From assembly GCF_055900595.2 (NCBI RefSeq), contig NZ_CM148325.1: a stretch of DNA of 64,000 nucleotides; one strand, written 5' to 3'. Made by a program: the position numbers and the translations under genes. The notes beneath the pieces were generated by a model that saw only the letters and a program-made list of their open reading frames with translations, made no database searches and was not told the origin of the DNA. Below, in pieces: positions 1-53,092 of this stretch; within the stretch, counting starts at the first letter, position 1; every line of letters begins with the position of its first letter.

Positions 1-966
1 CAGCGCGGCGAGGAGCAGGTTGGTGTAGTAGTAAATTTTGACGGTATCGAAACGTCGCGTTAACGGGCTGACAATCACCGAGCCGATAATGGAGGCGAAG
101 GTGACCATAGTGAAGAACAGCGACGTGTAGCCCGTACTGCCTTGTAAGACGTAGGTAATGAAGTACATATACCCACCGCCGCGAATATTAAAGACGTTAA
201 TCAGCAGGAAAGACATGACCAGCATCAGCAGCAGTTGGTCGTTGTTTCGCAGCCCGGCAAGATGTTCGCGCAGGGTAAATTTCCCCATTGTGGAGAGTGG
301 CACCCGTTCACGAACCCAGAAGAAACAGCACAGGAACATCACCACAGCGATGGCGCACAGCACGCCGACGCCCAGTTGATAGCCGCGCGCGGCATTACCC
401 TGACCGAAGAGATCTACCATCCACGGCAAGCCAACCGAAACCAGAAATCCTGCCACGCCGCAGAGAACGAATCGCCAGGACTGGCAGGAGATCACTTCAT
501 TGTGGCGGGTGGTCATGGTGTTGATCAGCGCGCAGTACGGCACGTTGATGGCGGTATAACCGACTGAAAGGAGCAGGTAAGTGCCGAACGCCCAGGCGAT
601 TTTTACTCCCATGCTGGCATCTGGCACGGTGAACGTCAGGATGCCGATAATGCCGATGGGAATGGCAATCCACAACTGCCACGGACGAAAGCGCCCCCAG
701 CGACTTTGCGTCCGGTCGGCAATGACGCCCATCACCGGGTCGGAGATGGCATCAAACACGCGCAGTGCAATAAACATCGTGCCGACCAGCGCCGGAGTTA
801 AGCCAAAAACGTCGGTGTAGAAAAAGGTGAGAAAGTTCATGATCAGGCAAGTTATTACGGTGCCGCCTGCGTCACCCAGGCCGTAGCCTATTTTTTCCCG
901 TACAGATAACGCATCGTCAATTTTACCTTTAGCGATATCAGCGGTAGTAATCGGTGTAGAGGTCAT
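1..966 (-). CDS. GPH-family (glycoside-pentoside-hexuronide) sugar:cation symporter, N-terminal ~322 aa; gene continues beyond window start
   Basis: Reverse-strand translation from ATG at 966 (GAGGA Shine-Dalgarno upstream) gives [15 protein letters not shown]...[13 protein letters not shown]... and the GPH signature ...[25 protein letters not shown]...; hydrophobic throughout. No stop within window. Family call from motif knowledge. Confidence 0.6.
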
Positions 967-1191
967 AGATATTCCTCGTGAATAGGGAGCAATTTTTAGT
1001 TTTATTGAAATGACATGATTAATTCTGCCGTGAACGGGAATATCAACAAGGCGAGAAAAGAGTAAAAAAAGGTGACGATTCCGACCTGAATTTAAAAGTG
1101 TGAATTGGATCAGGTGAAATTAATGTTTTTGATTAATAATCAAAAGGTAATGTGTTTAATCATTAATGAATAAGCGGGAAATTACATATCA

Positions 1192-2007
1192 ATGCTCGAA
1201 TTATCCATGACGTTACCGATTAAAGTGCAAAATGGTGGATTATTTATTTCCCGTGGCGTAGGGAGGCATCCGGCAAGGCGGCTGGAGTCATGGGAAATTA
1301 TCTTTGTCGAAAAAGGTCGATTAGCGATTCAGGAAGAAGAGCGGATATTTCTGGTCGATGCGGGAGAGAGTTTATTACTCTGGCCGAACCGACAGCATGT
1401 TGGGGTAGAGGATTTTCCCGCCGATCTCAAATTTTACTGGCTGCATTTTGAGGTTAAAGCGCCGGATAGCGACCCGCGCTGGCTCACTCATCTTAGCGTG
1501 CCGCAACAAACGAAGGTTGCCGATCCGCAGGCGCTGGTGGCCCTGTTTCGCCAGTTCTTAAGCGAACAGGAAAAGCATCAACGCACTCCGGCGCTGGAGT
1601 TTATTGTGCTGCTGATTTTGCAGCAACTCACCCGTGACGCGCGTCTTGATGAACAGGCCGATGCCGCAGGTACCACGCTTGCCTGGAAAGCGCAGAAACT
1701 GATCCGCACGCAATATCATCGCCCGCTTTCCACGGCGCTTTTAGCCCGCGAGCTGTACTGCAATGCCGATTATCTTGGGCGCGTCTATCGGCGGGTGTTT
1801 CATCTGACGCTTACAGAAGCAATCCACCGCCAGCGGGTGCGCGAAGCCGAAAAGCTGTTAATTAGCGACGCGCGCTCGCTCACGGAAGTGGCGGCGTTGT
1901 GCGGGTTTAATGACGTTGGCTATTTCCGACAGATTTTTCGCAAACACACCGGATTAACGCCAGCTGCGTGGAAGCGACGTTACAGCAAGGAACATATCAA
2001 TTCGTAG
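1192..2007 (+). CDS. AraC/XylS-family transcriptional regulator, divergent from the symporter
   Basis: 271-aa ORF; C-terminal part has the AraC-type helix-turn-helix pattern (...ARELYCNADYLGRVYRRVFHLTLTEAIHRQRVREAEKLL...GFNDVGYFRQIFRKHTGLTPAAWKRR). Start codon uncertain (1192 or 1207). Confidence 0.6.
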   Translation: MLELSMTLPIKVQNGGLFISRGVGRHPARRLESWEIIFVEKGRLAIQEEERIFLVDAGESLLLWPNRQHVGVEDFPADLKFYWLHFEVKAPDSDPRWLTHLSVPQQTKVADPQALVALFRQFLSEQEKHQRTPALEFIVLLILQQLTRDARLDEQADAAGTTLAWKAQKLIRTQYHRPLSTALLARELYCNADYLGRVYRRVFHLTLTEAIHRQRVREAEKLLISDARSLTEVAALCGFNDVGYFRQIFRKHTGLTPAAWKRRYSKEHINS

Positions 2008-2010
2008 TGT

Positions 2011-2028
2011 CGGGGCAATGAAGCCCCG
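2011..2028. terminator. GC-rich hairpin between convergent AraC-regulator gene and sgbE (likely bidirectional terminator)
   Basis: CGGGGC-AATGAA-GCCCCG perfect inverted repeat directly between two convergent stop codons. Confidence 0.5.
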
Positions 2029-2038
2029 GCGTGAGAGA

Positions 2039-2734
2039 TTACTGCCCGTAATAGGCATTGGCCCCATGCTTACGCAGGTAGTGCTTATCCAGCAGTTCGT
2101 TTTGCATGGCAGGGAGCTGTGGTGCAAGCTGGCGCGAGAACAGGCCCATATAGGCGCACTCTTCCAGCACTACGGCATTATGCACGGCATCGGCGGCGTT
2201 TTTTCCCCAGGCGAACGGGCCGTGAGAATGCACCAGTACCGCCGGGATTTGTGCCGGGTTCAACCCACGCTCTTCGAAGGTTTTAATGATCACTTCGCCG
2301 GTCTGGTATTCATACTCGCCGTTGATCTCCTCTACGGTCATCTGTCGCGTGCAGGGGATGGCACCATAGAAATAATCGGCGTGCGTGGTGCCCCAGGCGG
2401 GGAGATCCAGCCCGGCCTGTGACCAGATGGTGGCGTGGCGCGAGTGGGTATGCACAATACCGCCAATTTCTGCATAGCGACGATAAAGCGCCAGATGCGT
2501 TGGCGTATCGGACGAGGGCTTTTTGCTACCTTCCACCACCTTGCCGCTGGCTATCTCAACCACCACCATATCGTCGGCGGTCATCACGTCGTACTCGACG
2601 CCGGAAGGTTTGATTACCATCCATTGCCGCGTCTCGTCTACCGCACTGACATTGCCCCAGGTAAACGTCACCAGATGGTGAGCGGGAAGCGCCAGATTTG
2701 CCGCCAGTACGTCGGCTTTCAGTTGTTCTAACAT
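2039..2734 (-). CDS. sgbE: L-ribulose-5-phosphate 4-epimerase (class II aldolase fold)
   Basis: 231-aa [36 protein letters not shown]...; recognised as SgbE; last gene of the yiaK-S operon. Confidence 0.9.
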
Positions 2735-3588
2735 ATAAATCCGGCCTCCTGCATACGCGCTTCAATCCAGCGCCGCGCCTGAATAATCTCCAGCACCGGC
2801 TCTTTGGCTTTTTCGGTCCACATCTCAATCAGAAATGATCCGCGATAGTTCAGTTCATGCAGCGTTTTGAAGATACCAACGAAATCGACGCAGCCTTCGC
2901 CAAACGGCACGTCGCGGAACTGTCCGGGGCTATGATCGGTCACTGGCTGGGTATCTTTCAGGTGGATGGCGGCGATACGGTCAATGCCCAGTTTCAGTTC
3001 GGCGGGAACATCATTGCCCCACGCGCTAAGGTTGCCGACGTCCGGGTAAACAGTGAACCACGGCGAAGCGAGTATCTCGTCCCATTTTTTCCATTTGCTG
3101 ATGGAGTTCATAAACGCGGTATCCATAATCTCCACCGCCAGCATCACCTGCGCGGCGGCTGCCTGTTCAACCGCCCACGCCAGCCCTTCGGCAAAACGTT
3201 GCTGCGTGCCTTCGTCATGGGCTTCGTAATAGACGTCGTAGCCCGCCAGTTGAATGGTGCGAATACCGAGATCGCGCGCCAGACGAATTGCTTTACTCAT
3301 GATCTCCCGTGCTCGCTGGCGTGCCGCGTCGTCACGGCTACCAAAGGGAAAACGACGATGTGCGGACAGGCACATCGACGGGATCCCAACACCCGTTTCG
3401 ATCATCGCGGCAACCAGCGAAGTCCTTTGTGCGGCGCTCCAGTCAAGGCGCGACAGACGCTCGTCGGTTTCATCCACCGACATTTCGACAAAATCAAAAC
3501 CGCAGCTTTTTGCCAGCACCAGCCGCTCCGGCCAGGAGAGATCTTTCGCCAGCGCTTTTTCATAAATCCCTAACGGATGATTACGCAC
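2728..3588 (-). CDS. sgbU: L-xylulose-5-phosphate 3-epimerase
   Basis: ORF track gives 2728..3621; the GTG at 3588 preceded by GGGGAGG gives the expected 286-aa product starting (M)[25 protein letters not shown]-barrel sugar-phosphate isomerase pattern. Confidence 0.85.
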
Positions 3589-4243
3589 GCGCGCCTCCCC
3601 AGATAGCGTCGATTTGCGCATGGAAGTCGGCAGCTACCTGTGCCGGATTTGCTGCGCCTGCCAGTGCTCGTCCGGCAATAAATGCCTTCACGCGGATATC
3701 TTTAAACAGCGGCAGGTCAGCAGGCGTAATCCCGCCGGTAATGGAAAGCTCAAGGCCGATATCGGAAAGCGCCTTCATGCGTGCCAGATCGGCTTCGCCC
3801 CACTGTTGCCCGCTGGCCTGCGCGTCACGACCACGATGATAAATCGCCTGCCGCACGCCAATACGATGCCAGTCGCGGGCGTCGTCCAGCGTCCAGTTAC
3901 CAAAAAGCTCTATCTGGATTTCACCACCGCAGCGTTGCGCCATAGCGTGGCCTTTTTCCACCGTCGCGAGCGGTGCGGCGCAGATGATGGTCATCCAGTT
4001 AGCGCCTGCGCCAAACGCCTGTTGCGCGAGCGTTTCACCAGCATCGGCGACCTTCCAGTCAGCAACGATGATTTTGTCCGGGCACTGTTCGCGCAAGGCT
4101 TTCACCGCGCCAAGCCCTTCGTTTAAACAGAGAATAGTGCCTGCTTCGACGATATCGACGCTGTCTTTTAACAGCGCAACGTCGCGCTGTGCGGCTTCAA
4201 GTGATGAGTGGTCGAGGGCCAGTTGCAGAAGTGGTCTGCTCAT
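3581..4243 (-). CDS. sgbH: 3-keto-L-gulonate-6-phosphate decarboxylase
   Basis: 220-aa [39 protein letters not shown]...; overlaps sgbU start by 8 bp. Confidence 0.9.
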
Positions 4244-5736
4244 AATGTGTTCTCCTTAACGCGGGCATGAAAGCCCTGTAGTGCGGCAATGAGGTGCTGA
4301 TAGCGTTGGTATTTTTGTTGGTAAAGCTGATGGGCGGTCATATCCGGTAACAGGGTACGCACCGGGTGCTGTTGATCGCGCTGGGCTTCGCTGAAATCGC
4401 GATAAACTCCGGTGCCGACGCGGGCGGCAAGCGCCGCGCCAAAACAGCCCGTTTCTTGCACCTGCGGCAGTTCGATACGCAGTCCGCTAACGTCCGCCAG
4501 CATTTGCATCCAGACATCGGAGTGCGCCGGGCCGCCAGTGACGCGCAGGGTGTGCACATCAGTAAAACGTTCGCGCATCCGGTTGAGGTGGGTCATATGG
4601 CTGAACACCACGCCTTCATAAATGGCCTGCAACAGGTGTGCGCGGGTGTGAATGGCCTGCATCCCGTAGAAACCGCTGGTCATCTCGAGTCCGGCGTTGC
4701 TGCCGTACAGGAACGGCAGGAAAAAGAGATCGCCACCGGCTTTCGGTAAGCTGGCAACAGCCTGGTTGATCTCTGCAAACGAGATTTCTCCCCACTGCGC
4801 GGTAAACCATTCGAGATTGCCGGAAGAGGTAGGGCTGGCTTCGTGAACGATAAATTCACCGTCGTTAACGTAGCGGCCATAGACATACGGATGCGCTTCA
4901 CCGCCACCTAAACCGCTGGTTATGCCGCTGGTCACCGCCCAGGTCCCCATCACCGCATTGAGGGTAAATTCGTCTTCGATTCCGGCGCAGAGTGCGGTAG
5001 AAACCACATCAAACAGGCCGCCGACAACGGGCGTACCCGCTTTCAGACCGGTCAGTGCGGCTGTCTGAGCGGTGATTTCCCCGCAGATTTCGGCAGATCC
5101 AACAACAGGCGGCAGGGCGTGATTGATTTCACTGATCCCCAGCCAGTCGGTGAGGCACGGGTCATATTCCCCGCGACTCATGTTGTAGAGATTGGATTCG
5201 GAAATATTGCTCTCTTCGCAGCCTTTGACACCGGTTAAACACCAGCGCAGGTAGTCGTGCGTCATCATCACGCAGCCAATTTGCGCGTAGCGTTCTGGTT
5301 CGTGCTCTTTCAGCCAGCGTAACAGCGACACCGGATGCCCGGTCCACAAGGTTTGTCGGGTCAGCGGGTAGAGTTTTTCCGGGATGCCATCTTCCTGCCA
5401 GCGACGAACGATTTCCATCGCCCGGCGGTCCGAGGACAAAATAGCATTCCCGAGCGGCTTGTCGTTTTTATCCAGCAAAAACAAGCCCTTTCCCTGTGCG
5501 GAGATACCGATACCGACAATTTGTTCCCCGCTAACACCAGAATGAGTAAGCAGGGCGCGAATGACAGCCATGCAGCATTGCCACAGTTCTGCCATATCGC
5601 GCTCTGCCCAGCCTGGCTGCGGGCTTAATGCGCACAGCGGCAGGCGCTGCACGCCTGCCTCCCGTCCTTCGCGGTCATACAGCCCGGCTTTCAGCCAGCT
5701 ACCGCCACAATCTAACCCCAGCCAGTATTGCGTCAT
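4240..5736 (-). CDS. lyxK: L-xylulose / 3-keto-L-gulonate kinase (FGGY family)
   Basis: 498-aa ORF MTQYWLGLDCGGSWLKAGLYD...; FGGY sugar-kinase N-terminus; 4-bp overlap with sgbH. Confidence 0.9.
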   Translation of the reverse strand: MTQYWLGLDCGGSWLKAGLYDREGREAGVQRLPLCALSPQPGWAERDMAELWQCCMAVIRALLTHSGVSGEQIVGIGISAQGKGLFLLDKNDKPLGNAILSSDRRAMEIVRRWQEDGIPEKLYPLTRQTLWTGHPVSLLRWLKEHEPERYAQIGCVMMTHDYLRWCLTGVKGCEESNISESNLYNMSRGEYDPCLTDWLGISEINHALPPVVGSAEICGEITAQTAALTGLKAGTPVVGGLFDVVSTALCAGIEDEFTLNAVMGTWAVTSGITSGLGGGEAHPYVYGRYVNDGEFIVHEASPTSSGNLEWFTAQWGEISFAEINQAVASLPKAGGDLFFLPFLYGSNAGLEMTSGFYGMQAIHTRAHLLQAIYEGVVFSHMTHLNRMRERFTDVHTLRVTGGPAHSDVWMQMLADVSGLRIELPQVQETGCFGAALAARVGTGVYRDFSEAQRDQQHPVRTLLPDMTAHQLYQQKYQRYQHLIAALQGFHARVKENTL

Positions 5737-5739
5737 GGT

Positions 5740-6726
5740 TTATTGCACCTCATCCACGGCTTTCAGCAGCTCAGCGCCCTGCGGAACATCTTTAACAAAC
5801 ATGTCGCGGACCTGAGTACCCAGTGCGTCGCTAAAGGCTTTGCGGTCGAGATCGGTGATGACTTCCACGCCAGCGTCTTTCATGCCGTCGATGATTTTTT
5901 GCTGATTTTCGGCGACCAATTTGCGCTGGTAATTACCCGCTTCTTGCGCAGATGAAATTAGCGCTTGCTGGAACTCCGGGCTTAAGCCATCAAATTTCGC
6001 TTTGTTGATCACTACCAGAAGCGGGGAATAGGCATGGTGAGTCAGAGATAGGTACTTCTGCACTTCATAAAATTTTGCCGACCAGACGACGTTGATGGGA
6101 TGTTCCTGAGCGTCGATAGTGCGTGTTTCCAGTCCGGTATAGACTTCGGCAAACGGCATCGGGATAGGGTTAGCGCCAAATACTTTAAATGCGGCGATAT
6201 TCATCGGGCTGTTGTTGGTGCGGATTTTCAGCCCTTTCAGGTCGCCAGGCGTTTTAACCGGTTGGCGTGAGTTGGTGACATCGCGCCAGCCGTTTTCCCA
6301 GTAGGCCAGTACTTTCAGTCCCTTACCTTCAAGGGAGGCCTTAAGTTCATCGCCGACTTTGCCGTCGAGTGTTTTATGCGCGTGGGCGGTATCGCGGAAC
6401 AGGAAAGGAACATCAAGCAGGTTCATCACAGGTGATAATCCGGCAAAGTTATTCGAGCCAGACATCTCCATATCAATAGTGCCGCCACGCACGCCACTGA
6501 TCATCGCTTGTGCGTTACCGAGAGTACTGTCCGGGAACAGTTTTAATTTCAGCTCGCCTTTGGTTCTCTCCTGCAATAAATCATTAAATTTTTTCGCCGC
6601 AATATGTTGAGAGTCGGTTTGCGATGTTTCATAACCGAAACGTAATGATTGTGTCGCCAGTGAAGATGTACTGAATGCAGCCAGGCCAGCAATGAATAAT
6701 GCGTAGGTTACAGAACGTAATTTCAT
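5740..6726 (-). CDS. yiaO: TRAP transporter periplasmic solute-binding protein (2,3-diketo-L-gulonate)
   Basis: 328-aa ORF with signal peptide MKLRSVTYALFIAGLAAFSTSSLA; DctP-family features. Confidence 0.9.
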   Translation of the reverse strand: MKLRSVTYALFIAGLAAFSTSSLATQSLRFGYETSQTDSQHIAAKKFNDLLQERTKGELKLKLFPDSTLGNAQAMISGVRGGTIDMEMSGSNNFAGLSPVMNLLDVPFLFRDTAHAHKTLDGKVGDELKASLEGKGLKVLAYWENGWRDVTNSRQPVKTPGDLKGLKIRTNNSPMNIAAFKVFGANPIPMPFAEVYTGLETRTIDAQEHPINVVWSAKFYEVQKYLSLTHHAYSPLLVVINKAKFDGLSPEFQQALISSAQEAGNYQRKLVAENQQKIIDGMKDAGVEVITDLDRKAFSDALGTQVRDMFVKDVPQGAELLKAVDEVQ

Positions 6727-6738
6727 AATATTTTCCTT

Positions 6739-8016
6739 TTAATTAATCCATTTCAACGGGAGGATGATGAGATCGGGAATAAAAACAAATAAGGCTAATA
6801 AGGAATATAAAACCAGGACGTAAGGGAAAACGCCTCTGACTGCATCATCGAATTTGAGTTTAGCCACCCCTGAAATAACGTTAAGCACATTACCGATAGG
6901 CGGTGTAATTAAGCCGATTGAGCAGTTGATGATAAACATGACACCGAAATAAATCGGATCGATTCCTGCCTCTTTAACTAAAGGCATTAATACCGGGGTA
7001 AGAATTAACACCGTCGGCGTTAAATCCATGACCATGCCGACAATCAGGATAGCCACCATAATGACGATAAACAGCAGACGCGGTGAATCGACCAACGGTT
7101 GCAGTAAATCAGAAACCATCATCGGCAATTCAGCAATGGTAATCAGCCAGGCAGAAACTTGTGCCGAGGCCACCAGAAACATCACCACTGAGGTCGTTTT
7201 CGCTGCGCCAATAAGTACATGCCAAAGTGTGGCGAAGGTCATTTCACGGTAAATAACTGTGGCGACAAACAACGCATAGAAAGCAGCAACGGCCCCGGCT
7301 TCGGTAGGGGTAAACAGACCGGAGCGAAAGCCGCCAATAATAATGACCGGAAGAAATAGCGCCCAGATACCGGAAACAAAAGAGTGCCAGATTTCTCGTT
7401 TCGTTGCTTTTTGCTGACGGGGTAAATTAAGACGACTGGCCTGCCACCACCATGTGAGCATCAGCGTTGCGCCCATCATAATGCCTGGGGCAATGCCCGC
7501 CATAAACAACTTACTGATGGATAATCCGCTGGAAACACCGAAGATAATAAACGGAATGGAAGGGGGAATAATTGGCGCGATAATCCCGCCAGAGGCAATC
7601 AGCCCCGCAGCACGGTTGACCGGGTAGTTAGCGCTGCGCATCATCGGCACCAGTAGCGCGGCAACGGCGGCGGTATCCGCAACAGCAGAACCGGAAAGGC
7701 TCGCCATAATCATAGCCGCCAGCACGCCGACGTAGCCCAACCCGCCTGGTTTATGCCCCACCAGTTTCATCGGCAGGTCAACAATGCGTTTTGATAAGCC
7801 GCCCGCATTCATGATTTCACCCGCCAGTACAAAGAACGGAATCGCCAGCAGGGAGAAGCTGTCAGCACCGTTTACCAGCGTTTGCGCCATGATCTGGACA
7901 TCAAACATATCCAGCCAGAACATAAGCGCCGCCCCGCACAACAGTAGCGACCAGGCAATAGGCAAACCGATAGCAATGCCACCCAACAGGCAGCCCAGAA
8001 AAATCAGCACAGCCAT
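6739..8016 (-). CDS. yiaN: TRAP transporter large permease subunit
   Basis: 425-aa highly hydrophobic ORF; DctM-like; operon position. Confidence 0.9.
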   Translation of the reverse strand: MAVLIFLGCLLGGIAIGLPIAWSLLLCGAALMFWLDMFDVQIMAQTLVNGADSFSLLAIPFFVLAGEIMNAGGLSKRIVDLPMKLVGHKPGGLGYVGVLAAMIMASLSGSAVADTAAVAALLVPMMRSANYPVNRAAGLIASGGIIAPIIPPSIPFIIFGVSSGLSISKLFMAGIAPGIMMGATLMLTWWWQASRLNLPRQQKATKREIWHSFVSGIWALFLPVIIIGGFRSGLFTPTEAGAVAAFYALFVATVIYREMTFATLWHVLIGAAKTTSVVMFLVASAQVSAWLITIAELPMMVSDLLQPLVDSPRLLFIVIMVAILIVGMVMDLTPTVLILTPVLMPLVKEAGIDPIYFGVMFIINCSIGLITPPIGNVLNVISGVAKLKFDDAVRGVFPYVLVLYSLLALFVFIPDLIILPLKWIN

Positions 8017-8018
8017 GA

Positions 8019-8492
8019 TTAAGCTCCTTGCGGTGGCGGCGTTAGAGAATTGCTACGCGTGATGAGTTGATATAAAAGGCGCAGCTCAAAGAATGCGATA
8101 ACGAGGCTGGTGGGTAGACAAGCGGCATACATCAGGCCGATGGGCAAGCCGAGGATCGGTGAATAATCGCTCCAGTCCTGAATTGTTTTTAGCGTTGCGC
8201 CCCAGGCCAGTGCGCCACAAATAAATAATATTAAGGAGTGGGTAACCAGAGCGACTCGTCGCTGCCACGCGGGGGAGAGTTTCTCCACCAGAAAGGTAAC
8301 CTGAACGTGGGCGTTATCCATAAAAGCCACAATCGCGCCAATAAAGGTTAACCAGACAAATAAATAACGCGACAATTCATCTACAGATAAAATACTTGTC
8401 TGAAAACCATATCTTAAAATAATGTTTATAAACACAATACAGGAAAGTACGGCGAGATTAATCGCCAGTATTGCTTCAAGTATTTTTTTCAT
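8019..8492 (-). CDS. yiaM: TRAP transporter small permease subunit
   Basis: 157-aa hydrophobic ORF; DctQ-like; immediately upstream of yiaN. Confidence 0.9.
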
Positions 8493-8609
8493 AGCTATTC
8501 CTTGAGGCTATGTTTGTCATAATTCAAGTTGCATGTGCAGCAACCTGAATTATTAATATAGTTAGAGCAATAACATTACCCAGGCGTTCTGGCGTAGACG
8601 ATTATTCGA

Positions 8610-9080
<471 letters not shown>

Positions 9081-9088
9081 TTATCTCC

Positions 9089-10087
9089 TTATAACGCCTG
9101 GATTTTTGCCCATACGCTGTCATCAACGGTAATACCGTTACGGCGGTTTTCTGCCAGCAGGGTGGTAAATTCGTGGCCGGGTAAGCGGATGGCCTGGTTT
9201 TCGTCAGCGCGTTCAGCGGTAGTAACGTAATCCATGATGCGTTGCAGCTTGGCATCGCGGGTGGGGCCGTCGATCAATTTATCCACTTCGATGGCGATAA
9301 AGATTTGCGAAACACCGTATTCGTCGCTGTTATCCTGGGTGACTTCAGCAACTGACGCGCCGTCAGAAAGAAGAGTAGCGATCATATCCAATACGATCGA
9401 CATACCGGAACCTTTCCAATAGCCCATCGGCAAAATTCGACGATTTTTCTCGATAACGCCAGGTTCTTTGGTCAAATTGCCCTCATCATCAAAGCCACCA
9501 TCGACCGGGAGCTGACGGCCCGCCAGGCGGTTAACTTCTAACATGCCATAAGAGAACATCGACATCGACATATCGACCATGGTGATTGGGGTAGAAGGAA
9601 TGGCGACGATCAGCGGGTTGGTGCCGATGCGACACTCTTTTGCGCCCCACGGCGGCATTACGGCGATGGAGTTGGTCCAGCAAATGCCAATATAGCCTTT
9701 TTCCGCCGCCTGCCAGCCGTAGCTGCCGCCGCGCATCCAGTGGTTGGCATTACGTAGAGCCACCAGACCAATACCGTGATCGGCAGCCAGTTCGATGGCG
9801 CGATCCATCATCTTTTTCGCTGTCAGGTTACCGATCGAACGCTGGGCGTCCCACTGTTCAATTGCGCCGAGGCTGGTTATACGTTTGGGTTGGGCATCAG
9901 GAATGATATCGCCGTTTTCCAGTTGTTGAATGAAACGAGGGAAACGGTTGACGCCGTGAGAATAAACGCCGGATTCGGTGGTGCGGGCGAACATTTCGGC
10001 ACAGGCATCAGCCGTTTCGCTGTCAACGCCGCGTGAAATTAAGACTCGATTAAAGGCTGCTTTTAACTGCTCAAATGTCACTTTCAT
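9089..10087 (-). CDS. yiaK: 2,3-diketo-L-gulonate reductase
   Basis: 332-aa [52 protein letters not shown]...; first gene of operon. Confidence 0.9.
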
Positions 10088-10287
10088 CCCTGGCTTCCTT
10101 GTTTTTTTGATCGCTTTTTTGGCTTAAAATTTCAATATGCGAAATCTGATTTCAAATATATCGATCGCTTTTTAACAAAGCAATCTGATTGATGAATTTC
10201 AAAAAACTTAAAAATCAAGTGGTTATAAATTATCTGTCGAGATCGTGAACTACGACACACTTTGCGCTACCATCAGGACGCGACAAA
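10088..10287. promoter_or_regulatory. Divergent yiaK / yiaJ promoter-operator region
   Basis: AT-rich 200-bp gap between divergent start codons; YiaJ repressor and CRP control is established for K-12; individual sites not resolved here. Confidence 0.4.
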
Positions 10288-11136
10288 ATGGGGAAAGAAG
10301 TGATGGGAAAAAAAGAGAACGAGATGGCGCAGGAAAAAGAGCGTCCAGCCGGAAGCCAGAGTCTGTTTCGCGGGTTGATGCTGATTGAGATTTTGAGCAA
10401 CTATCCAAACGGTTGTCCGTTGGCGCATCTTTCGGAGCTGGCTGGTTTAAATAAGAGTACCGTCCATCGCTTATTGCAGGGATTACAATCCTGCGGCTAT
10501 GTGACCACCGCGCCCGCCGCAGGGAGTTACCGCCTGACTACCAAATTTATTGCCGTCGGGCAGAAGGCGCTGTCTTCGCTGAATATCATTCATATCGCCG
10601 CTCCGCATCTTGAGGCACTGAACATCGCCACTGGTGAAACCATTAACTTCTCCAGCCGCGAAGACGATCACGCTATTTTGATTTATAAGCTGGAACCCAC
10701 GACCGGGATGCTGCGAACCCGAGCTTATATAGGCCAGCATATGCCGCTCTACTGTTCCGCAATGGGCAAGATCTACATGGCGTTTGGTCACCCGGACTAC
10801 GTGAAGTCATACTGGGAAAGCCATCAGCATGAGATCCAGCCGTTAACCCGCAATACCATTACCGAGCTGCCCGCGATGTTCGACGAACTGGCGCACATTC
10901 GTGAAAGCGGAGCGGCGATGGACAGAGAAGAAAACGAACTCGGCGTCTCCTGTATTGCTGTTCCGGTGTTTGATATTCATGGGCGGGTGCCGTACGCCGT
11001 GTCGATTTCTCTTTCGACATCACGTCTGAAACAGGTGGGGGAGAAAAATCTCCTGAAACCACTGCGTGAAACCGCGCAGGCTATTTCTAATGAACTGGGA
11101 TTTACTGTCAGGGACGACCAGGGCGCGATCACATAA
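10288..11136 (+). CDS. yiaJ: IclR-family transcriptional repressor of the yiaK-S operon
   Basis: 282-aa ORF with IclR-type HTH (...LSELAGLNKSTVHRLLQGLQSCGYV...). Confidence 0.9.
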   Translation: MGKEVMGKKENEMAQEKERPAGSQSLFRGLMLIEILSNYPNGCPLAHLSELAGLNKSTVHRLLQGLQSCGYVTTAPAAGSYRLTTKFIAVGQKALSSLNIIHIAAPHLEALNIATGETINFSSREDDHAILIYKLEPTTGMLRTRAYIGQHMPLYCSAMGKIYMAFGHPDYVKSYWESHQHEIQPLTRNTITELPAMFDELAHIRESGAAMDREENELGVSCIAVPVFDIHGRVPYAVSISLSTSRLKQVGEKNLLKPLRETAQAISNELGFTVRDDQGAIT

Positions 11137-11237
11137 CGCTCTGGACAAGTGCCAAAACTTTAACATTTCCTTCGTTGGATCAAAGCAGTAGAGACGCGCT
11201 CTCTGGCACTCTGCTGTTTTAGTGCAAAGGAGTGATC

Positions 11238-11711
11238 ATGAACCGGTTTATTATTGCGGATGCGACGAAATGTATCGGTTGCCGTACCTGTGAAGTGGCT
11301 TGCGCAGTGTCGCATCAGGAGAATCAGGATTGCGCTGCGTTGTCACCCGGTGAGTTTATTTCGCGTATTCGTGTCATTAAAGATCATACTTACACCACGG
11401 CAGTAGCCTGTCATCAGTGTGAAGATGCACCGTGCGCAAATGTGTGCCCTGTTGACGCGATAAGTCGCGAACATGGGCATATTTTCGTTGAACAATCACG
11501 TTGTATTGGCTGTAAAAGCTGTATGCTGGCTTGCCCGTTTGGTGCGATGGAGGTCGTTTCTTCACGCACAAAGGCGAGGGCGATTAAGTGCGATCTGTGC
11601 TGGCATCGGGCGACGGGACCGGCTTGTGTTGAAGCTTGCCCAACACAAGCGTTGCAATGCATGGATGTCGAGAAAGTGCAGCGGCATCGGCTACGGCAGC
11701 AGTCTGTTTGA
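11238..11711 (+). CDS. ysaA: 4Fe-4S ferredoxin-type protein
   Basis: CxxCxxC...C clusters (CIGCRTCEVAC, CHQCEDAPCANVCP, CIGCKSCMLACP, CDLCW); ORF track starts 6 nt upstream at 11232; 11238 gives 157 aa. Confidence 0.85.
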   Translation: MNRFIIADATKCIGCRTCEVACAVSHQENQDCAALSPGEFISRIRVIKDHTYTTAVACHQCEDAPCANVCPVDAISREHGHIFVEQSRCIGCKSCMLACPFGAMEVVSSRTKARAIKCDLCWHRATGPACVEACPTQALQCMDVEKVQRHRLRQQSV

Positions 11712-11759
11712 AACGTTTTTCCGGCGTTTTTTAACGCAGGAATAGTGCGCTTTGTTTAT

Positions 11760-11858
11760 GCCGGATGCGGCTTAAACGCCTTATCCGGCCTACAAATTAT
11801 TCCAAATTCAATATATTGCAGAAATGATGTAGGCCTGATAAGCGTAGCGCATCAGGCA
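11760..11858. repeat. REP (BIME-like) palindromic elements between convergent ysaA and avtA
   Basis: GCCGGATGCGGCTTAAACGCCTTATCCGGCCTAC and GTAGGCCTGATAAGCGTAGCGCATCAGGC: the classic E. coli REP consensus. Confidence 0.8.
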
Positions 11859-11862
11859 ATTT

Positions 11863-13116
11863 TTAATGACTTTCAGCCCAGGCGCGTTCAATCTCTTCCG
11901 CCAGAATCTTCACCCCCGCTTCAATTTTATCCGGCTCCGGCACGTAGTTCATACGCATACATTGATGTGTATGTGGCCACGGTTTATCCAGCTCTGGGAA
12001 GAAGTTGTGCCCCGGCACCATCAGCACGCCCCGTGCTTTCAGGCGCTGGTAGAGCTGCTCGGTCGTAATTGGCAAATCCTTAAACCATAGCCAGAGGAAA
12101 ATGGCTCCTTCCGGTTTATGAATCAGGCAGCGATCTTCCGGTAAATAGCGGCGAATGATAGCGATAGTTTCCTGAACACGTTGGTAGTAAAACGGTTTGA
12201 TGACTGTTTCAGACAGGCGCAGCAGATCGTTACGCTTAATCATTTCACACATCATCGCTGGACCAATACCGCCAGGTGCCAGGCTGATAATGCCGTTCAT
12301 ATTGGTGATGGCGGTGATGATTTTTTCATTGGCGATGATAATGCCGCAGCGGGAGCCTGGTAGACCCAGCTTGGAAAGACTCATGCACAGTACGATATTC
12401 GGATTCCACAGCGGGCGCGCTTCGCTGAAGATGATACCCGGGAATGGGACGCCATAAGCGTTATCAATCACCAGCGGAATGCCGTGTTGATTCGCCAGCG
12501 CGTCAAGCTTCAGCAACTCTTCGTCAGTAATCACATTGCCTGTTGGATTCGTCGGCCGGGAGACGCAAATCATCCCGGTTTCTTCGCCAATATGCAGATG
12601 CTCAAAATCGACGTGGTATTTAAACTGGCCTTCCGGCAGCAGTTCAATATTCGGACGCGCAGAGACAAACAGATCTTCTTCCAGTCCGGCGTCAGCGTAG
12701 CCAATGTATTCCGGTGCCAGCGGAAACAGCACTTTTTTGATCCGACCATCTGCACGGCGTCCGGCGAACAGATTAAATAAGTAGAAAAACGCGCTCTGGC
12801 TGCCGTTTGTTAGTGCAATATTCTGTGGTTCGATATCCCAACCCAACTTCTCGCGTAGCATTCCGGCAAGCAGTGTGAGTAGCTCCGTTTTCCCCTGTGG
12901 ACCGTCGTAATTGCACAGTGCATCAGTCGCTTTGCCACTTTCCAGCATGTCGGTCAGTAGCGTCTGGAAGTAGTCCTGCATTTCCGGGATCTGCGCTGGA
13001 TTACCGCCGCCGAGCATAATCGCGCCAGGCGTGCGTAAACCGTCGTTCAGATCTTCCATCAGCAGCGTAATGCCGGAGTGGCGGGTAAATTTGTCACCAA
13101 AAAGGGAGAATGTCAT
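11863..13116 (-). CDS. avtA: valine-pyruvate aminotransferase (transaminase C)
   Basis: Start at internal ATG (MTFSLFGDKFTRHSGITLLMEDLNDG...) gives 417 aa; the 452-aa ORF in the track is an upstream extension. Confidence 0.9.
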   Translation of the reverse strand: MTFSLFGDKFTRHSGITLLMEDLNDGLRTPGAIMLGGGNPAQIPEMQDYFQTLLTDMLESGKATDALCNYDGPQGKTELLTLLAGMLREKLGWDIEPQNIALTNGSQSAFFYLFNLFAGRRADGRIKKVLFPLAPEYIGYADAGLEEDLFVSARPNIELLPEGQFKYHVDFEHLHIGEETGMICVSRPTNPTGNVITDEELLKLDALANQHGIPLVIDNAYGVPFPGIIFSEARPLWNPNIVLCMSLSKLGLPGSRCGIIIANEKIITAITNMNGIISLAPGGIGPAMMCEMIKRNDLLRLSETVIKPFYYQRVQETIAIIRRYLPEDRCLIHKPEGAIFLWLWFKDLPITTEQLYQRLKARGVLMVPGHNFFPELDKPWPHTHQCMRMNYVPEPDKIEAGVKILAEEIERAWAESH

Positions 13117-42633: not shown

Positions 42634-42710
<77 letters not shown>

Positions 42711-42719: not shown

Positions 42720-42745
42720 AACCAGCCTACGGGCTGGTTTTTTGC
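42720..42745 (+). terminator. proK terminator
   Basis: CCAGCCTACGGGCTGG followed by TTTTTTGC, 10 nt after the tRNA 3' end. Confidence 0.8.
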
Positions 42746-42759
42746 TTTCTGCGACCTGA

Positions 42760-42885
42760 AGAGGATAAGAACCTCCGGGGGCAGAGAGGTTCGACTCGAG
42801 CAAAGCGAGAGAACGTTGCGTCAGCAACGGCCCGCAGGGCGAGCCACGCAGTGGCGAGTAATCCTCTGGCACCGACCAAATCTGA
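42760..42885. other. Degenerate tRNA-like segment ending in a near-copy of the proK 3' end
   Basis: AATCCTCTGGCACCGACCAA (42860..42880) versus proK 3' end AATCCTCTATCACCGACCAA; upstream GAGGTTCGACTC resembles a T-arm. Confidence 0.4.
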
Positions 42886-42889
42886 ACGT

Positions 42890-42970
42890 AGGCCTGATAA
42901 GACGCGTCAGCGCCGCATCAGGCAACGGCACCGCACTTATTGTCGGATGCGGCGTGAACGCCTTATCTGA
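42890..42970. repeat. REP/BIME palindromic elements
   Basis: GCCTGATAAGACGCGTCAGCGCCGCATCAGGC and GTCGGATGCGGCGTGAACGCCTTATCTGACC. Confidence 0.8.
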
Positions 42971-43339
42971 CCGACACACCACATATTTCCCTGCCAAATT
43001 TGCGCCCCACATCTCACTATCCATTAACGGATTTGTGACAGAATCCATTGTCTTTTTTTATATTTGCTTAAATCTTTTTTTGCGTTACTTATGGCTGGCG
43101 CTGGCATTTTCCGCTGTGCGTTTTAGCGTTCATGGTATTAATCGCTCAGATATCCATCTTTTCCTCAGATTTTTTTCATTAAATGCATAAAACTTAATCA
43201 CCAAATGTTGCTAAATATTAAGCTGATTGTTCTGGTTATGTTGGCGTAGCACAAATTTCTCTGCTGCAAATAGCTGTTTGAAGTTTTTTTAATCTTTGTT
43301 TGTGGATTCTCACCGTTGGTGTAAATCCCGGTTGGCTGT

Positions 43340-50684: not shown

Positions 50685-51039
50685 AAAGTCCTGTCCAGAA
50701 AGAAGTCGGCCTCGCAAAAATGAATAAACCCAGTTTCTCTTGCGCAACAGGTGGAGAAGTCGAATACGCAGTATGTAAAAAATGAGGCAATAGATTCACT
50801 GGGGAGGTCGCGAGGAGGCGCAATTCTACAAAATTGCGCATTTCACTACCAGTCTGGAGTCAGCCCGGATATGAACTGCAACTATTGCAAATAAAGAAAT
50901 TAAGCTGGAAGGTATCACGCAATGAGGAAGGTTGCCGGGTGCTGACGGTAAAAAGCAATCGTAAAATCAGCGGCAAGCCGGAAAGGTTCCGGTGAGGCGC
51001 AATGTTGCGGGGGCTTAATCCCTGGTGGCATTGGTTGCT

Positions 51040-51112
51040 GGAGAGAGAAAACCCCCGCACGTTGCAGATATTCACCTGACAACATCACGGGGGCTAATCT
51101 TGAACCTAGACC
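51040..51112 (-). ncRNA. rdlD: putative Rdl antisense RNA, copy 1 (approximate ends)
   Basis: Minus-strand GC stem (CCCCCG...CGGGGG) followed by UUUUCUCUCU, opposite the ldr leader; inferred from LDR locus organisation. Confidence 0.35.
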
Positions 51113-51159
51113 ACTCAAGAATAGCCGCGAAACGTTGTCATTACAACACAGGCGGCTAT

Positions 51160-51267
51160 ATGACGCTCGCAGAACTGGGCATGGCCTTCTGGCATGATTT
51201 AGCGGCTCCGGTCATCGCTGGCATTCTTGCCAGCATGATCGTGAACTGGCTGAATAAGCGGAAGTAA
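51160..51267 (+). CDS. ldrD: Ldr-family type I toxin, copy 1 (35 aa)
   Basis: MTLAELGMAFWHDLAAPVIAGILASMIVNWLNKRK; closest to K-12 LdrD as recalled. Confidence 0.85.
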   Translation: MTLAELGMAFWHDLAAPVIAGILASMIVNWLNKRK

Positions 51268-51522
51268 CGTGTCAGACGGGCGTCAGGCTGCCGTAATGGC
51301 AATTTGCGCCCGGACCAGGCCGCAGGGATAAAACTCTGCGGCCTTTTTCGTAAGAAAAATGCAACGGTTGCAAGCGGATAATATTCTGCGGAATGCGCAG
51401 CACAGAGTGAAGAAGTGACGGATTCCGGAACAGAAAAACAGTCGTAGAATCAGCGGCAAGCCGGAAGGGTTCCGGTGAGGCGCAATGTTGCGGGGGCTTT
51501 ATCCCTGGTGGCATTGGGTGCT

Positions 51523-51595
51523 GGAGAGAGAAAACCCCCGCACGTTGCAGGTATGCACCTGACAACACCACGGGGGCCATTCTTGCATCCAAACA
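51523..51595 (-). ncRNA. putative Rdl antisense RNA, copy 2 (approximate)
   Basis: Same element one repeat unit downstream. Confidence 0.35.
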
Positions 51596-51642
51596 ATACA
51601 AGAATAGCCGCGAAACGTTGTCATTACAACACAGGCGGCTAT

Positions 51643-51750
51643 ATGACGCTCGCAGAACTGGGCATGGCCTTCTGGCATGATTTAGCGGCTCCGGTCATTG
51701 CTGGCATTCTTGCCAGTCTGATCGTGAACTGGCTGAATAAGCGGAAGTAA
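51643..51750 (+). CDS. Ldr-family type I toxin, copy 2
   Basis: MTLAELGMAFWHDLAAPVIAGILASLIVNWLNKRK (M26L relative to copy 1). Confidence 0.85.
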   Translation: MTLAELGMAFWHDLAAPVIAGILASLIVNWLNKRK

Positions 51751-52006
51751 CGTGTCAGACGGGCGTCAGGCTGCCGTAATGGCAATTTGCGCCCGGACCA
51801 GGCTGCAGGGATAAAACTCTGCGGCCTTTTTCGTAAGAAAAATGCAACGGTTGCAAGCGGATAATATTCTGCGGAATGCGCAGCACAGAGTGAAGAAGTG
51901 ATGGATTTCGACGAGCAAAAATGGCCGTAGAATCAGCGGCAAGCCGGAAGGGTTCCGGTGAGGCGCAATGTTGCGGGGGGCTTTATCCCTGGTGGCATTG
52001 GTTGCT

Positions 52007-52079
52007 GGAGAGAGAAAACCCCCGCACGTTGCAGGTATGCACCTGGCAACACCACGGGGGCCATTCTTGCATCTAGACC
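52007..52079 (-). ncRNA. putative Rdl antisense RNA, copy 3 (approximate)
   Basis: Same element. Confidence 0.35.
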
Positions 52080-52126
52080 ATTCAAGAATAGCCGTGAAAC
52101 GTTGTCATTACAACAGAGGCGGCTAT

Positions 52127-52234
52127 ATGACGCTCGCAGAACTGGGCATGGCCTTCTGGCATGATTTAGCGGCTCCGGTCATCGCTGGCATTCTTGCCAG
52201 TCTGATCGTGAACTGGCTGAACAAGCGGAAGTAA
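52127..52234 (+). CDS. Ldr-family type I toxin, copy 3
   Basis: Identical peptide to copy 2. Confidence 0.85.
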   Translation: MTLAELGMAFWHDLAAPVIAGILASLIVNWLNKRK

Positions 52235-52489
52235 CGTGTCAGACGGGCGTCAGGCTGCCGTAATGGCAATTTGCGCCCGGATCAGGCCGCAGGGATAAAA
52301 CTCTGCGGCCTTTTTCGTAAGAAAAATGCAACGGTTGCAAGCGGATAATATTCTGCGGAATGCGCAGCACAGAGTGAAGAAGTGACGGATTCCGGAACAG
52401 AAAAACAGTCGTAGAATCAGCGGCAAGCCGGAAGGGTTCCGGTGAGGCGCAATGTTGCGGGGGCTTTATCCCTGGTGGCATTGGTTGCT

Positions 52490-52562
52490 GGAGAGAGAAA
52501 ACCCCCGCATATTGCAGGTATGCACCTGACAACATCACGGGGGCCATTCTTGAACCTACACA
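52490..52562 (-). ncRNA. putative Rdl antisense RNA, copy 4 (approximate)
   Basis: Same element. Confidence 0.35.
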
Positions 52563-52609
52563 ACTCAAGAGTAGCCGCGAAACGTTGTCATTACAACACT
52601 GGCGGCTAT

Positions 52610-52717
52610 ATGACGCTCGCAGAGCTGGGCATGGCCTTCTGGCACGATTTAGCGGCTCCGGTCATTGCTGGCATTCTTGCCAGTCTGATCGTGAACTGGC
52701 TGAACAAGCGGAAGTAA
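52610..52717 (+). CDS. Ldr-family type I toxin, copy 4
   Basis: Identical peptide to copy 2. Confidence 0.85.
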   Translation: MTLAELGMAFWHDLAAPVIAGILASLIVNWLNKRK

Positions 52718-52972
52718 CGTGTCGGACGAGCGTCAGGCTGCCGTAATGGCAATTTGCGCCCGGACCAGGCCGCAGGGATAAAACTCTGCGGCCTTTTTCG
52801 TAAGAAAAATGCAACGGTTGCAAGCGGATAATATTCTGCGGAATGCGCAGCACAGAGTGAAGAAGTGACGGATTCCGGAACAGAAAAACAGTCGTAGAAT
52901 CAGCGGCAAGCCGGAAGGGTTCCGGTGAGGCGCAATGTTGCGGGGGCTTAATCCCTGGTGGCATTGGTTGCT

Positions 52973-53045
52973 GGAGAGAGAAAACCCCCGCACGTTGCAG
53001 GTATGCACCTGACAACATCACGGGGGCTAATCTTGAACCCAAACA
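52973..53045 (-). ncRNA. putative Rdl antisense RNA, copy 5 (approximate)
   Basis: Same element. Confidence 0.35.
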
Positions 53046-53092
53046 ACTCAAGAATAGCCGCGAAACGTTGTCACTACAACAGAGGCGGCTAT

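Follow-up and report, generated by a model that had tools for sequence, protein, structure and literature searches.

The 64,000-nucleotide stretch of DNA analyzed in this work (the window; contig NZ_CM148325.1 of RefSeq assembly GCF_055900595.2) contains at its left end part of a three-gene cassette encoding an AraC-type regulator, a symporter and a glycoside hydrolase of family GH127. With a probability of roughly 0.7 we consider it to be an ancestral enterobacterial cassette that serves the import of beta-L-arabinofuranosides and their cleavage by the cytoplasmic GH127 enzyme under the control of the AraC-type regulator, and that has been lost by Escherichia coli K-12. The components stem from well-known families and are annotated in RefSeq, so that current understanding is left unchallenged; the cassette is an experimentally uncharacterized member of these families. 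The searchable literature yielded neither functional experiments on the cassette from E. coli or other enterobacteria nor a published assay of an enterobacterial GH127 member. The sole mention of a cassette gene found comes from comparative genomics, where the GH127 gene co-segregates with epithelial invasiveness in isolates from inflammatory bowel disease (IBD) (PMC11879602).

Gene organization of the locus

The reverse strand of positions 1-966 is a single open frame of 322 codons with its ATG at position 966 (start codon 964-966). It corresponds to codons 1-322 of 466 of a gene for a GPH-family (MFS_2) symporter that leaves the window at its left edge. A divergent control region of 225 nt and 32% G+C (967-1191) lies between this gene and that for the 271-aa AraC-family regulator (1192-2007, plus strand), which combines an N-terminal cupin-type ligand-binding domain with a C-terminal double helix-turn-helix. 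The regulator gene is divergent from the symporter gene and convergent with sgbE (2039-2734, minus strand), and a spacer of 31 nt separates it from the latter. The assignment of sgbE as the gene for L-ribulose-5-phosphate 4-epimerase follows the annotation of relatives and a match to NF009002 (512 bits, cutoff 386). It is the final gene of the yiaK-sgbE operon, and sgbU, sgbH, lyxK and yiaO are found beyond it in the window. As O157:H7 and 44 of 67 assessable loci from other species have the cassette but no adjacent sgbE, sgbE marks its boundary and is a neighbor outside the cassette proper.

The window stops inside the symporter gene, and what follows in this genome was deduced from near-identical ones. 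In genomes that are 99.96-99.98% identical to the window, an intact gene for the 466-aa symporter (minus strand) is followed after a gap of 10 nt by the gene for the 656-aa GH127 protein on the same strand and then by yiaT. The same order of regulator, symporter, GH127 and yiaT is present in strain 2020CK-00188. A preliminary description of the window had reported the convergent regulator next to sgbE and the divergent symporter running off the edge, just as found here, and had predicted that a glycoside hydrolase gene would follow that of the transporter. The GH127 gene occupies this place, so the pair does form the front end of a glycoside-utilization unit; the further notion that it represents the edge of a larger cluster does not hold, as the locus comprises three genes in all. 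It had also stated that sgbE is followed by yiaT in K-12. This is the case in MG1655, where the regulator and symporter genes are missing and the pseudogene remnants ysaC and ysaD are located between the two.

The hydrolase and its probable substrate

The hydrolase shows the three-domain architecture of GH127 enzymes (PF07944, 1.2e-111; PF20736, 2.9e-24; PF20737, 3.4e-25), and the same Pfam domains are listed in the genomes 99.96-99.98% identical to the window. Its closest solved relative is the beta-L-arabinofuranosidase from Geobacillus (PDB 4QJY; E=3.6e-237, 792 bits, residues 11-650 aligned), and HypBA1 from Bifidobacterium longum (3WKW; E=5.6e-153, 514 bits) aligns over the full length. 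HypBA1 uses Cys417 as the nucleophile and Glu322 as the acid/base and contains a zinc site of the (Cys)3-Glu type (PMC8106489). Residues Glu322, Glu338, Cys340, Cys417 and Cys418 of HypBA1 align with E318, E334, C336, C414 and C415 of the cassette enzyme. All five are kept in 80 of 80 orthologues. Of seven loci retrieved with the exact regulator protein of the window, four of them near-identical to the window, six likewise have all five. The enzyme retains the cysteine nucleophile, the glutamate acid/base and the zinc ligands. Its N-terminus (MNISEVDLHKLTVSDPF) does not resemble a signal peptide, and the protein is likely a cytoplasmic beta-L-arabinofuranosidase.

A protein of identical architecture might act on another substrate, be it an aceric-acid-containing fragment of rhamnogalacturonan II, a 3,6-anhydro-D-galactoside or some other furanoside. 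Family GH127 holds further specificities, among them an aceric-acid hydrolase and 3,6-anhydro-D-galactosidases, and sequence alone cannot give the specificity of a member. The sole NCBIfam match of the cassette enzyme is in fact the aceric acid hydrolase model NF049879 (E=1.6e-136), and PDB entries 5MQO and 6EX6 are matched as well (7e-95 and 3e-116, respectively). However, the score of 456.4 bits with NF049879 amounts to less than half of the curated cutoff of 950 and its best stretch is confined to residues 252-649, whereas the two beta-L-arabinofuranosidases match over the whole length with 792 and 514 bits as compared to 322-393 bits for 5MQO and 6EX6. A different substrate is therefore regarded as unlikely, and cleavage of a beta-L-arabinofuranoside is the preferred reading.

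The symporter

The fragment encoded in the window is identical in 321 of 322 positions to the N-terminus of the 466-aa MFS transporter of strain 2020CK-00188, and family models were run on this orthologue. It matches Pfam MFS_2 with E=3e-73 and the GPH:cation symporter model TIGR00792 with 333.2 bits (cutoff 231.35) over model positions 1-437 of 437, which places it in the GPH family (TC 2.A.2). The nearest named NCBIfam models are those for YagG-like and YicJ-like proteins. The scores stay below the curated cutoffs for YagG-like proteins (357 versus 610), PRK11462 (325 versus 836), MelB (209 versus 456) and the glucuronide transporter (194 versus 528). Because those for the YagG-like and PRK11462 models fall short, the symporter is a paralogue separate from the named GPH carriers of E. 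coli. Asp55 and Asp59 of MelB are cation-site residues located in helix II. In the alignment to 4M64 they correspond to D72 and D76 of the symporter, while S75 takes the place of N58, so that the aspartate pair is conserved. The protein is predicted to be a glycoside/pentoside:cation carrier that is closest to the pentoside carriers of the YagG/YicJ type.

Proposed function and comparison with established systems

Taken together, the likely function of the cassette would be the uptake of a small beta-L-arabinofuranoside and its cytoplasmic hydrolysis to L-arabinose. The symporter may import a compound such as the disaccharide Araf-beta1,2-Ara, which would originate from plant hydroxyproline-rich glycoproteins and would be freed by other gut or plant-associated microbes. 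GH127 would then liberate L-arabinose for the AraBAD pathway. In the presence of an inducer the regulator would activate the symporter-GH127 operon by acting at the 225-nt control region, where CRP is a probable co-input.

A K-12 parallel to this design is provided by yicJ-yicI and yagG-yagH, and also by melAB and uidAB, in which the genes for a GPH symporter and for a cytoplasmic glycosidase acting on a small glycoside are co-transcribed. The cassette differs from yicJ-yicI and yagG-yagH in that the partner enzyme belongs to GH127 and not to GH31 or GH43, and in that it has a divergent AraC-type regulator of its own. Ara127N from Geobacillus stearothermophilus T6 (4QJY/4QK0) is the GH127 enzyme already introduced as the closest solved relative; its host is Gram-positive, unlike that of the cassette, and its gene is located in a larger cluster for L-arabinan utilization. 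The precedent for the complete route is B. longum, which consumes beta-Ara2 freed by an extracellular enzyme by means of an importer and intracellular HypBA1 (PMC7263609). That system (HypBA2 of family GH121, an ABC importer and HypBA1 of family GH127) and the cassette have in common an importer and an intracellular GH127 cysteine glycosidase, and the two hydrolases, aligned over their full length, are identical in the five catalytic and zinc-binding residues. Where B. longum has an ABC importer, the E. coli cassette encodes a GPH cation symporter made of a single component, and its regulator is of the AraC type; the E. coli system is known from sequence alone. Another difference concerns extracellular enzymes of families GH121 or GH43, which are not encoded near the E. 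coli cassette. E. coli would therefore depend on substrate released by others. No extracellular enzyme releasing beta-arabino-oligosaccharides was found beside the cassette, so that the source of the substrate is conjecture.

Integrity of the cassette

Symporter and regulator are real genes rather than chance open reading frames because few of the differences between E. coli alleles reach the protein level: 34 nucleotide differences in the symporter fragment result in only three amino-acid changes, and 29 in the regulator gene result in six. Both genes are open in the window and under purifying selection. This argues against the cassette being a non-functional relic in this genome, be it through a break just beyond the window edge or through loss of expression, a view that could draw on the window ending within the symporter gene and on a locus so prone to deletion that at least five configurations occur in E. 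coli. The symporter, GH127 and its catalytic set are intact in four public genomes that differ from 12 kb of the window by 1-5 mismatches, and the disruption of the symporter that had been envisaged as a possibility beyond the edge is not seen in the genomes 99.96-99.98% identical to the window. An apparent frameshift in the GH127 gene of ST131-type strains was considered as a sign of pseudogenization and rejected; it is a deletion of 1 nt five codons before the stop codon and affects the last five codons only. We consider a relic very unlikely.

Distribution and loss in E. coli

The cassette is carried by 2313 of 5426 complete E. coli genomes (~43%), including BL21(DE3), O157:H7 and ST131. 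The expression strain-specific used in the preliminary description is thus overstated, although K-12 does lack the regulator-symporter pair, as had been presumed there, and it is absent from more than half of the complete genomes. About 2470 genomes including K-12 share one common scar of two deletions and about 640 have nothing at the locus, both figures being differences between totals that are backed by the identity bands of the matches. The ~2470 genomes match positions 1904-2030 only, with 92-94.5% identity. This surviving segment (plus strand) is made up of the spacer and the final 104 nt of the regulator gene, the counterpart of ysaC.

The sgbE-yiaT interval of MG1655 holds the annotated pseudogenes ysaC (102 nt) and ysaD (192 nt). 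Both are accounted for by the cassette: ysaC (b4648) covers the final ~100 nt of the regulator gene (window positions 1904-2007), and ysaD (b4649) is an internal GH127 fragment from close to the 3' end of that gene. They are non-coding scars of the same cassette of which the window has the intact ancestral genes. The K-12 scar goes back to two deletions, one of about 210 bp and one of about 4021 bp, and breakpoint mapping places the right end of the 4.0-kb deletion between positions 1903 and 1904. K-12-type genomes thereby retain remnants of both cassette ends. The GH127 remnant is 89% identical, as opposed to 94-97% for the adjoining retained stretches, and is for this reason taken as a decayed deletion scar. 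A different solution is realized in O157:H7, where the cassette is kept and the neighboring yiaK-sgbE operon is deleted. Altogether, at least five different deletion configurations exist at the locus in E. coli. Besides the intact form, the arrangements distinguished are the K-12 scar and the O157, ST131, aldB|sgbE and IS1 types, and the neighboring modules HicAB, Fic and yiaWVUT likewise vary between strains. Presence and absence of the cassette constitute a long-standing polymorphism in E. coli that has arisen through several independent deletions, and its absence from K-12 is a loss. Two short BLAST matches in cassette-less genomes (H68 and H69) were considered as cassette remnants and rejected, being intergenic DNA at unrelated loci (flg, tor); they resemble copies of a short dispersed repeat that the yiaT-GH127 spacer contains.

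Of the best 80 matching loci outside E. coli, 68 contain the cassette, often in the same sgbE...yiaT/aldB context. The order sgbU-sgbE, regulator, symporter, GH127, yiaT, yiaU, aldB recurs in Citrobacter, Enterobacter, Lelliottia and Pseudocitrobacter, and Salmonella diarizonae as well as some Klebsiella contain sgbU-sgbE, regulator, symporter and GH127 without yiaT and yiaU. The hallmarks of a genomic island, i.e. mobility genes or tRNA, deviant composition and an empty site in related genera, are not found. From the distribution in E. coli, the shared scar and the same cassette in other species it follows that the cassette is ancestral in enterobacteria and has repeatedly been lost. The acquired accessory island implied by the earlier reading, that is a horizontally acquired, strain-specific insertion between sgbE and yiaT, would agree with the absence from K-12 and 57% of complete E. 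coli genomes and with the strain-variable modules nearby, but is highly improbable in view of both cassette ends persisting as a decayed scar in K-12-type genomes, the gene order shared with (or, in S. diarizonae and Klebsiella, partly shared with) other genera, a G+C content of 53-55%, similar to the 57% of sgbE and the 51% of the whole window, and the lack of an integrase, IS element or tRNA beside the cassette in the carrier genomes.

Possible ecological significance

Should the proposed function be correct, the ability of a strain to use beta-linked L-arabinofuranosides of dietary or plant glycoproteins would hinge on a common polymorphism. The cassette is present in ~43% of complete genomes and lost from ~57% by at least five different deletions, and the K-12 reference hides this piece of ancestral metabolism. 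We tentatively put forward, as a possibility that we rate somewhat below even odds, that the cassette enables about two fifths of E. coli lineages to live on beta-L-arabinofuranosyl di- or oligosaccharides such as beta-Ara2, for example from dietary plant extensins, that are freed by bifidobacteria or plant-associated bacteria. Such a cross-feeding or niche trait would have been overlooked since K-12 lost the cassette. If true, it would bear on cross-feeding with bifidobacteria in the gut, on persistence on plants (O157:H7 retains the cassette and has deleted yiaK-sgbE) and on the single reported link between the GH127 gene and invasive IBD isolates, a co-segregation that it could underlie (PMC11879602).

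The regulator and its control region

The regulator possesses an N-terminal cupin effector domain (AraC_binding, PF02311; 1.5e-08, residues 26-132) and belongs to the AraC/XylS family by its matches to HTH_18 (3.9e-19, residues 184-263) and HTH_AraC (4.8e-08). The Pfam models HTH_18 and, for the symporter, MFS_2 support the family assignments made beforehand for both proteins. With 61.2 bits against the AraC equivalog NF007860 (cutoff 208), it is a member of the AraC family but not AraC itself. It is divergent from the symporter in 68 of 68 three-gene loci of other species, and it always accompanies the symporter-GH127 pair, even where sgbE is absent. A role as controller of the adjacent yiaK-sgbE operon was rejected because the regulator gene is convergent with this operon and stays with symporter and GH127 where the operon is deleted (O157:H7), and because it accompanies the pair in the 44 of 67 other-species loci without adjacent sgbE.

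Alignment of 69 orthologous intergenic regions from many genera revealed several conserved elements in the control region, the functional assignment of which is necessarily putative. These are blocks at 1044-1051 (CAACAAGG), 1061-1071 (AGTA.AAAAAG) and 1078-1085 (ATTCCGAC), a CRP-like site with a single good half-site (TGTGA-N4-GATC; TGTGA at 1099-1103 and GATC at 1108-1111) and a conserved core, TTAATAATCA, within a perfect palindrome at 1127-1145. A scan of positions 900-2100 returned no sigma-70 consensus promoter, which fits dependence on an activator. Terminator-like predictions in the same interval were disregarded, as all of them lie inside the regulator coding sequence, and Rfam gave no match in 1-2030. 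The spacer between the regulator gene and sgbE contains a G+C-rich hairpin at 2009-2030 (stem CGGGGC/GCCCCG, nine pairs when extended; fold -18.9 kcal/mol, z-score -2.75). It is devoid of a T-run and is not called an intrinsic terminator. The yiaK-sgbE deletion of O157:H7 ends inside this hairpin, the O157:H7 matches stopping at 2016-2019.

A three-gene cassette next to sgbE

The left end of the window carries the N-terminal part of a GPH-family symporter (1-966, minus strand), a single open frame of 322 codons with its ATG at 964-966 that exits the left edge, followed by an AraC-family regulator gene (1192-2007, plus strand; 271 aa) and a 231-aa ORF (2039-2734, minus strand). The latter is assigned as sgbE because its product matches the L-ribulose-5-phosphate 4-epimerase model NF009002 (512 bits versus a cutoff of 386) and because sgbU, sgbH/ulaD, lyxK and yiaO come next in order. 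ORF positions and strands thus agree with the geometry given in the preliminary description, i.e. a regulator gene that converges on sgbE and diverges from a GPH symporter gene truncated at the edge of the window. The start codon of sgbU (2728-3621), which overlaps the end of sgbH, is ambiguous: the ATG of the longest ORF yields 297 aa, and RefSeq annotates 286 aa (861 nt) in relatives.

The regulator contains an AraC_binding cupin (1.5e-08), HTH_18 (3.9e-19) and HTH_AraC (4.8e-08); with 61 bits versus a cutoff of 208, it is not AraC itself. The truncated symporter is identical in 321 of 322 positions to the N-terminus of an intact 466-aa MFS transporter from E. coli 2020CK-00188, which matches Pfam MFS_2 (3e-73) and exceeds the cutoff of the GPH:cation symporter model TIGR00792 (333 versus 231 bits). 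Symporter residues D72 and D76 align with the cation-site residues D55 and D59 of MelB.

The exact regulator protein of the window is encoded by many public contigs, and four of these, AP025754.1 included, have just 1-5 mismatches to window 1-12007 (99.96-99.98% identity). In all four near-identical genomes, the symporter is intact (466 aa) and is followed, after a gap of 10 nt, by an intact gene for a 656-aa GH127 hydrolase, beyond which lie yiaT, yiaU, yiaV, yiaW, a HicBA pair and aldB. Gene order is identical in 2020CK-00188, which is collinear with the window across all 64 kb (cassette, yia, avtA, malS, xyl, glyQS, bisC, eptB, dpp, into the bcs genes) at 97.8-99.0% identity, with length differences only at an LDR toxin-antitoxin array and a site by tRNA-Pro/RtT. 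The symporter-GH127-yiaT order in these genomes therefore defines the locus as a three-gene cassette. A glycoside hydrolase downstream of the transporter had been predicted and is indeed found in all four near-identical genomes; the locus is not the edge of something large.

The hydrolase and its active site

The hydrolase possesses all three GH127 Pfam domains. Its closest solved relative is the Geobacillus beta-L-arabinofuranosidase 4QJY (E=3.6e-237, residues 11-650), followed by HypBA1 from Bifidobacterium longum (3WKW, E=5.6e-153), and the Bacteroides-type entries 6EX6 and 5MQO score far below these two. The sole NCBIfam match, aceric acid hydrolase, reaches less than half of the cutoff (456 versus 950). 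HypBA1 is a retaining "cysteine glycosidase" with Cys417 as nucleophile, Glu322 as acid/base and zinc on (Cys)3-Glu (PMC8106489). The E. coli residues aligned with this set, E318, E334, C336, C414 and C415, are kept in 80 of 80 orthologues, and the catalytic and zinc residues are likewise kept in six of the seven loci listed as encoding the exact window regulator, the four near-identical genomes among them. Gene content, architecture and catalytic apparatus of the cassette are shown by these data. Read by eye, the N-terminus (MNISEVDLHKLTVSDPF...) is devoid of signal-peptide character, and the enzyme should therefore be cytoplasmic.

Selection and control region

Relative to O157:H7, the 966-nt symporter fragment has 34 nucleotide differences, which lead to three amino acid changes, and the regulator gene has 29, which lead to six; the corresponding values for Escherichia sp. 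E1V33 are 72 and six for the symporter fragment and 102 and 17 for the regulator. So few amino acid changes per nucleotide difference indicate purifying selection on both.

The divergent control region (967-1191) comprises 225 nt with 32% G+C. Comparison of 69 sequences from many genera revealed the conserved blocks CAACAAGG (1044-1051), AGTA.AAAAAG (1061-1071), ATTCCGAC (1078-1085), TGTGA (1099-1103) followed by GATC (1108-1111), and TTAATAATCA. The last, kept across genera, forms the core of a perfect palindrome, TTTTGATTA-A-TAATCAAAA (1127-1145), which lies about 50 nt upstream of the regulator start codon and may serve as an operator or belong to the promoter of the regulator gene itself. 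TGTGA-N6-TC resembles one good CRP half-site, an activator could bind the block at about 1073-1087, and the motif AGTA(T/A)A on the reverse strand may be a -10-like element. No sigma-70 promoter turned up in a consensus scan, consistent with activator dependence. A hairpin of nine pairs (2009-2030; -18.9 kcal/mol, z=-2.75) lies between the convergent genes for the regulator and sgbE; it lacks a run of T and was not predicted to be a terminator.

Distribution and losses within E. coli

Of 5426 complete E. coli genomes, 2312 contain at least 80% of window 1-2030, and 2313 contain at least 80% of the full 4.58-kb cassette as one contiguous stretch, BL21(DE3), O157:H7, O55:H7 and ST131 among them. 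In about 2470 genomes the match is confined to window 1904-2030 (92-94.5% identity), and about 640 are without any match. The sgbE-yiaT interval of K-12 MG1655 harbors the annotated pseudogenes ysaC (102 nt) and ysaD (192 nt), and its alignment to the intact cassette reveals two deletions. The smaller, about 210 bp long and with GGCTGG microhomology where its ends were joined, removed the 3' end of GH127 along with some of the spacer towards yiaT; the larger, of 4021 bp, took the entire symporter gene as well as most of GH127 and of the regulator gene. What survives of GH127, a piece of 190 nt, shows only 89% identity, compared with 94-97% in the adjoining retained stretches. Alignment limits are identical in every sampled genome with this K-12-type scar, which points to a single old event.

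Other lineages lost other parts. O157:H7 and O55:H7 kept the cassette and have lost the entire yiaK-sgbE operon by deletion, with only a C-terminal yiaJ remnant left; the breakpoint in O157:H7 FRIK2533 (L003 11007-11149) corresponds to about window 2016-2019, inside the hairpin just past the regulator stop codon. In ST131-type genomes (L008, L091) yiaWVUT is absent and GH127 abuts aldB. Their GH127, "frameshifted" according to RefSeq, has a 1-nt deletion five codons before the stop, adjoining the yiaWVUT deletion; only the last five codons differ, and the enzyme is probably still functional. An EPEC E2348/69 derivative (L093 9539-9586) has aldB directly against sgbE, yiaWVUT and the cassette having gone without a scar, and in AH02 (L092 10546-13005) an IS1-bounded deletion that starts inside yiaU and ends inside yiaN has removed yiaT together with the site of the cassette and half the yia operon. 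Segments present in some strains and absent from others make the entire aldB-yiaJ interval a mosaic.

The E2348/69 derivative also carries a DUF4862-family gene between yiaL and yiaM, within the yia operon (L093 16147-17067). Small modules that vary between strains occupy the yiaY/aldB-yiaW stretch (L001 7049-7972; L003 1-964; L008 5949-7244): some strains have a Fic-family gene there, others a toxin-antitoxin pair, HicA/HicB, plus a hypothetical gene.

Ancestry of the cassette

Other species were scanned with one genome each, and the best 80 loci with close GH127 relatives (71-97% identity) were considered. Regulator, symporter and GH127 are arranged exactly alike in 68 of them; the remaining 12 comprise three truncated before the regulator, seven from Bradyrhizobium with GH127 alone, and one each from Hafnia and Buttiauxella in which one or both partner genes are missing. 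Of these best 80 loci, 23 have sgbE at most 400 nt from the regulator 3' end, 23 have yiaT downstream and 42 have aldB in the flank. Citrobacter, Enterobacter, Lelliottia and Pseudocitrobacter exhibit the order sgbU-sgbE/regulator/symporter/GH127/yiaT/yiaU/aldB, and Salmonella diarizonae and some Klebsiella the same order up to GH127, without yiaT and yiaU. The cassette genes have 53-55% G+C (sgbE, 57%), and no mobility genes were found in the cassette's flanks. Recurring synteny, ordinary G+C and the lack of flanking mobility genes together argue that the cassette is ancestral and vertically inherited and that K-12 represents the derived state. Neither the acquisition implied by the preliminary description nor its term "strain-specific" is supported; "variable within E. 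coli" is correct.

The Bradyrhizobium enzymes (L080-L083, L085, L087, L089), which occur without symporter or regulator, are 71-72% identical to that of E. coli. For an alphaproteobacterium this is more similarity than expected, and the enzyme gene alone may have been transferred horizontally long ago.

The regulator is part of the cassette and not of the yia operon, because it is kept beside the symporter-GH127 pair in O157:H7, where the yia operon has gone, and because it is kept with the pair in the other-species loci that have no adjacent sgbE (44 of 67).

Proposed function

The three genes are already annotated by RefSeq in thousands of genomes and the K-12 remnants already bear names. 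A literature search yielded no work on the function of the enterobacterial cassette; in one comparative study, the GH127 gene is named as one of those that co-segregate with the invasiveness of IBD isolates, and hydrolysis of beta-Ara2 is assumed (PMC11879602). The cassette is thus uncharacterised and consists of components of known kinds.

In B. longum, an extracellular enzyme frees Araf-beta1,2-Araf from hydroxyproline-rich glycoproteins, an importer brings the disaccharide in and intracellular HypBA1 converts it to L-arabinose (PMC7263609). A model following this precedent is the best-supported one; substrate, induction and CRP input are inferred. The E. coli importer is a GPH symporter related to the pentoside carriers YagG and YicJ, and an extracellular enzyme is not encoded near the cassette, so that the cell would scavenge beta-L-arabinofuranosides freed by other organisms. 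The symporter would take up these small compounds, and GH127 would cleave them to L-arabinose, which could then be passed on to AraBAD.

Other features of the window

In the LDR tandem array (50951-53284) a 483-bp unit is repeated 4.8 times, and five matches to the antitoxin RNA rdlD lie within it; three Ldr toxin genes are located at this position in the closest RefSeq strain. The array is a copy-number expansion of a type I toxin-antitoxin module, of which K-12 has a single ldrD/rdlD at this locus. A short stretch without counterpart in 2020CK-00188 (42843-42924), next to the tRNA (42634-42707) and RtT (42744-42878), borders an Rfam match to naRNA4 (REP-type; 42891-42972), with partial overlap, and is probably an extra REP-type element.
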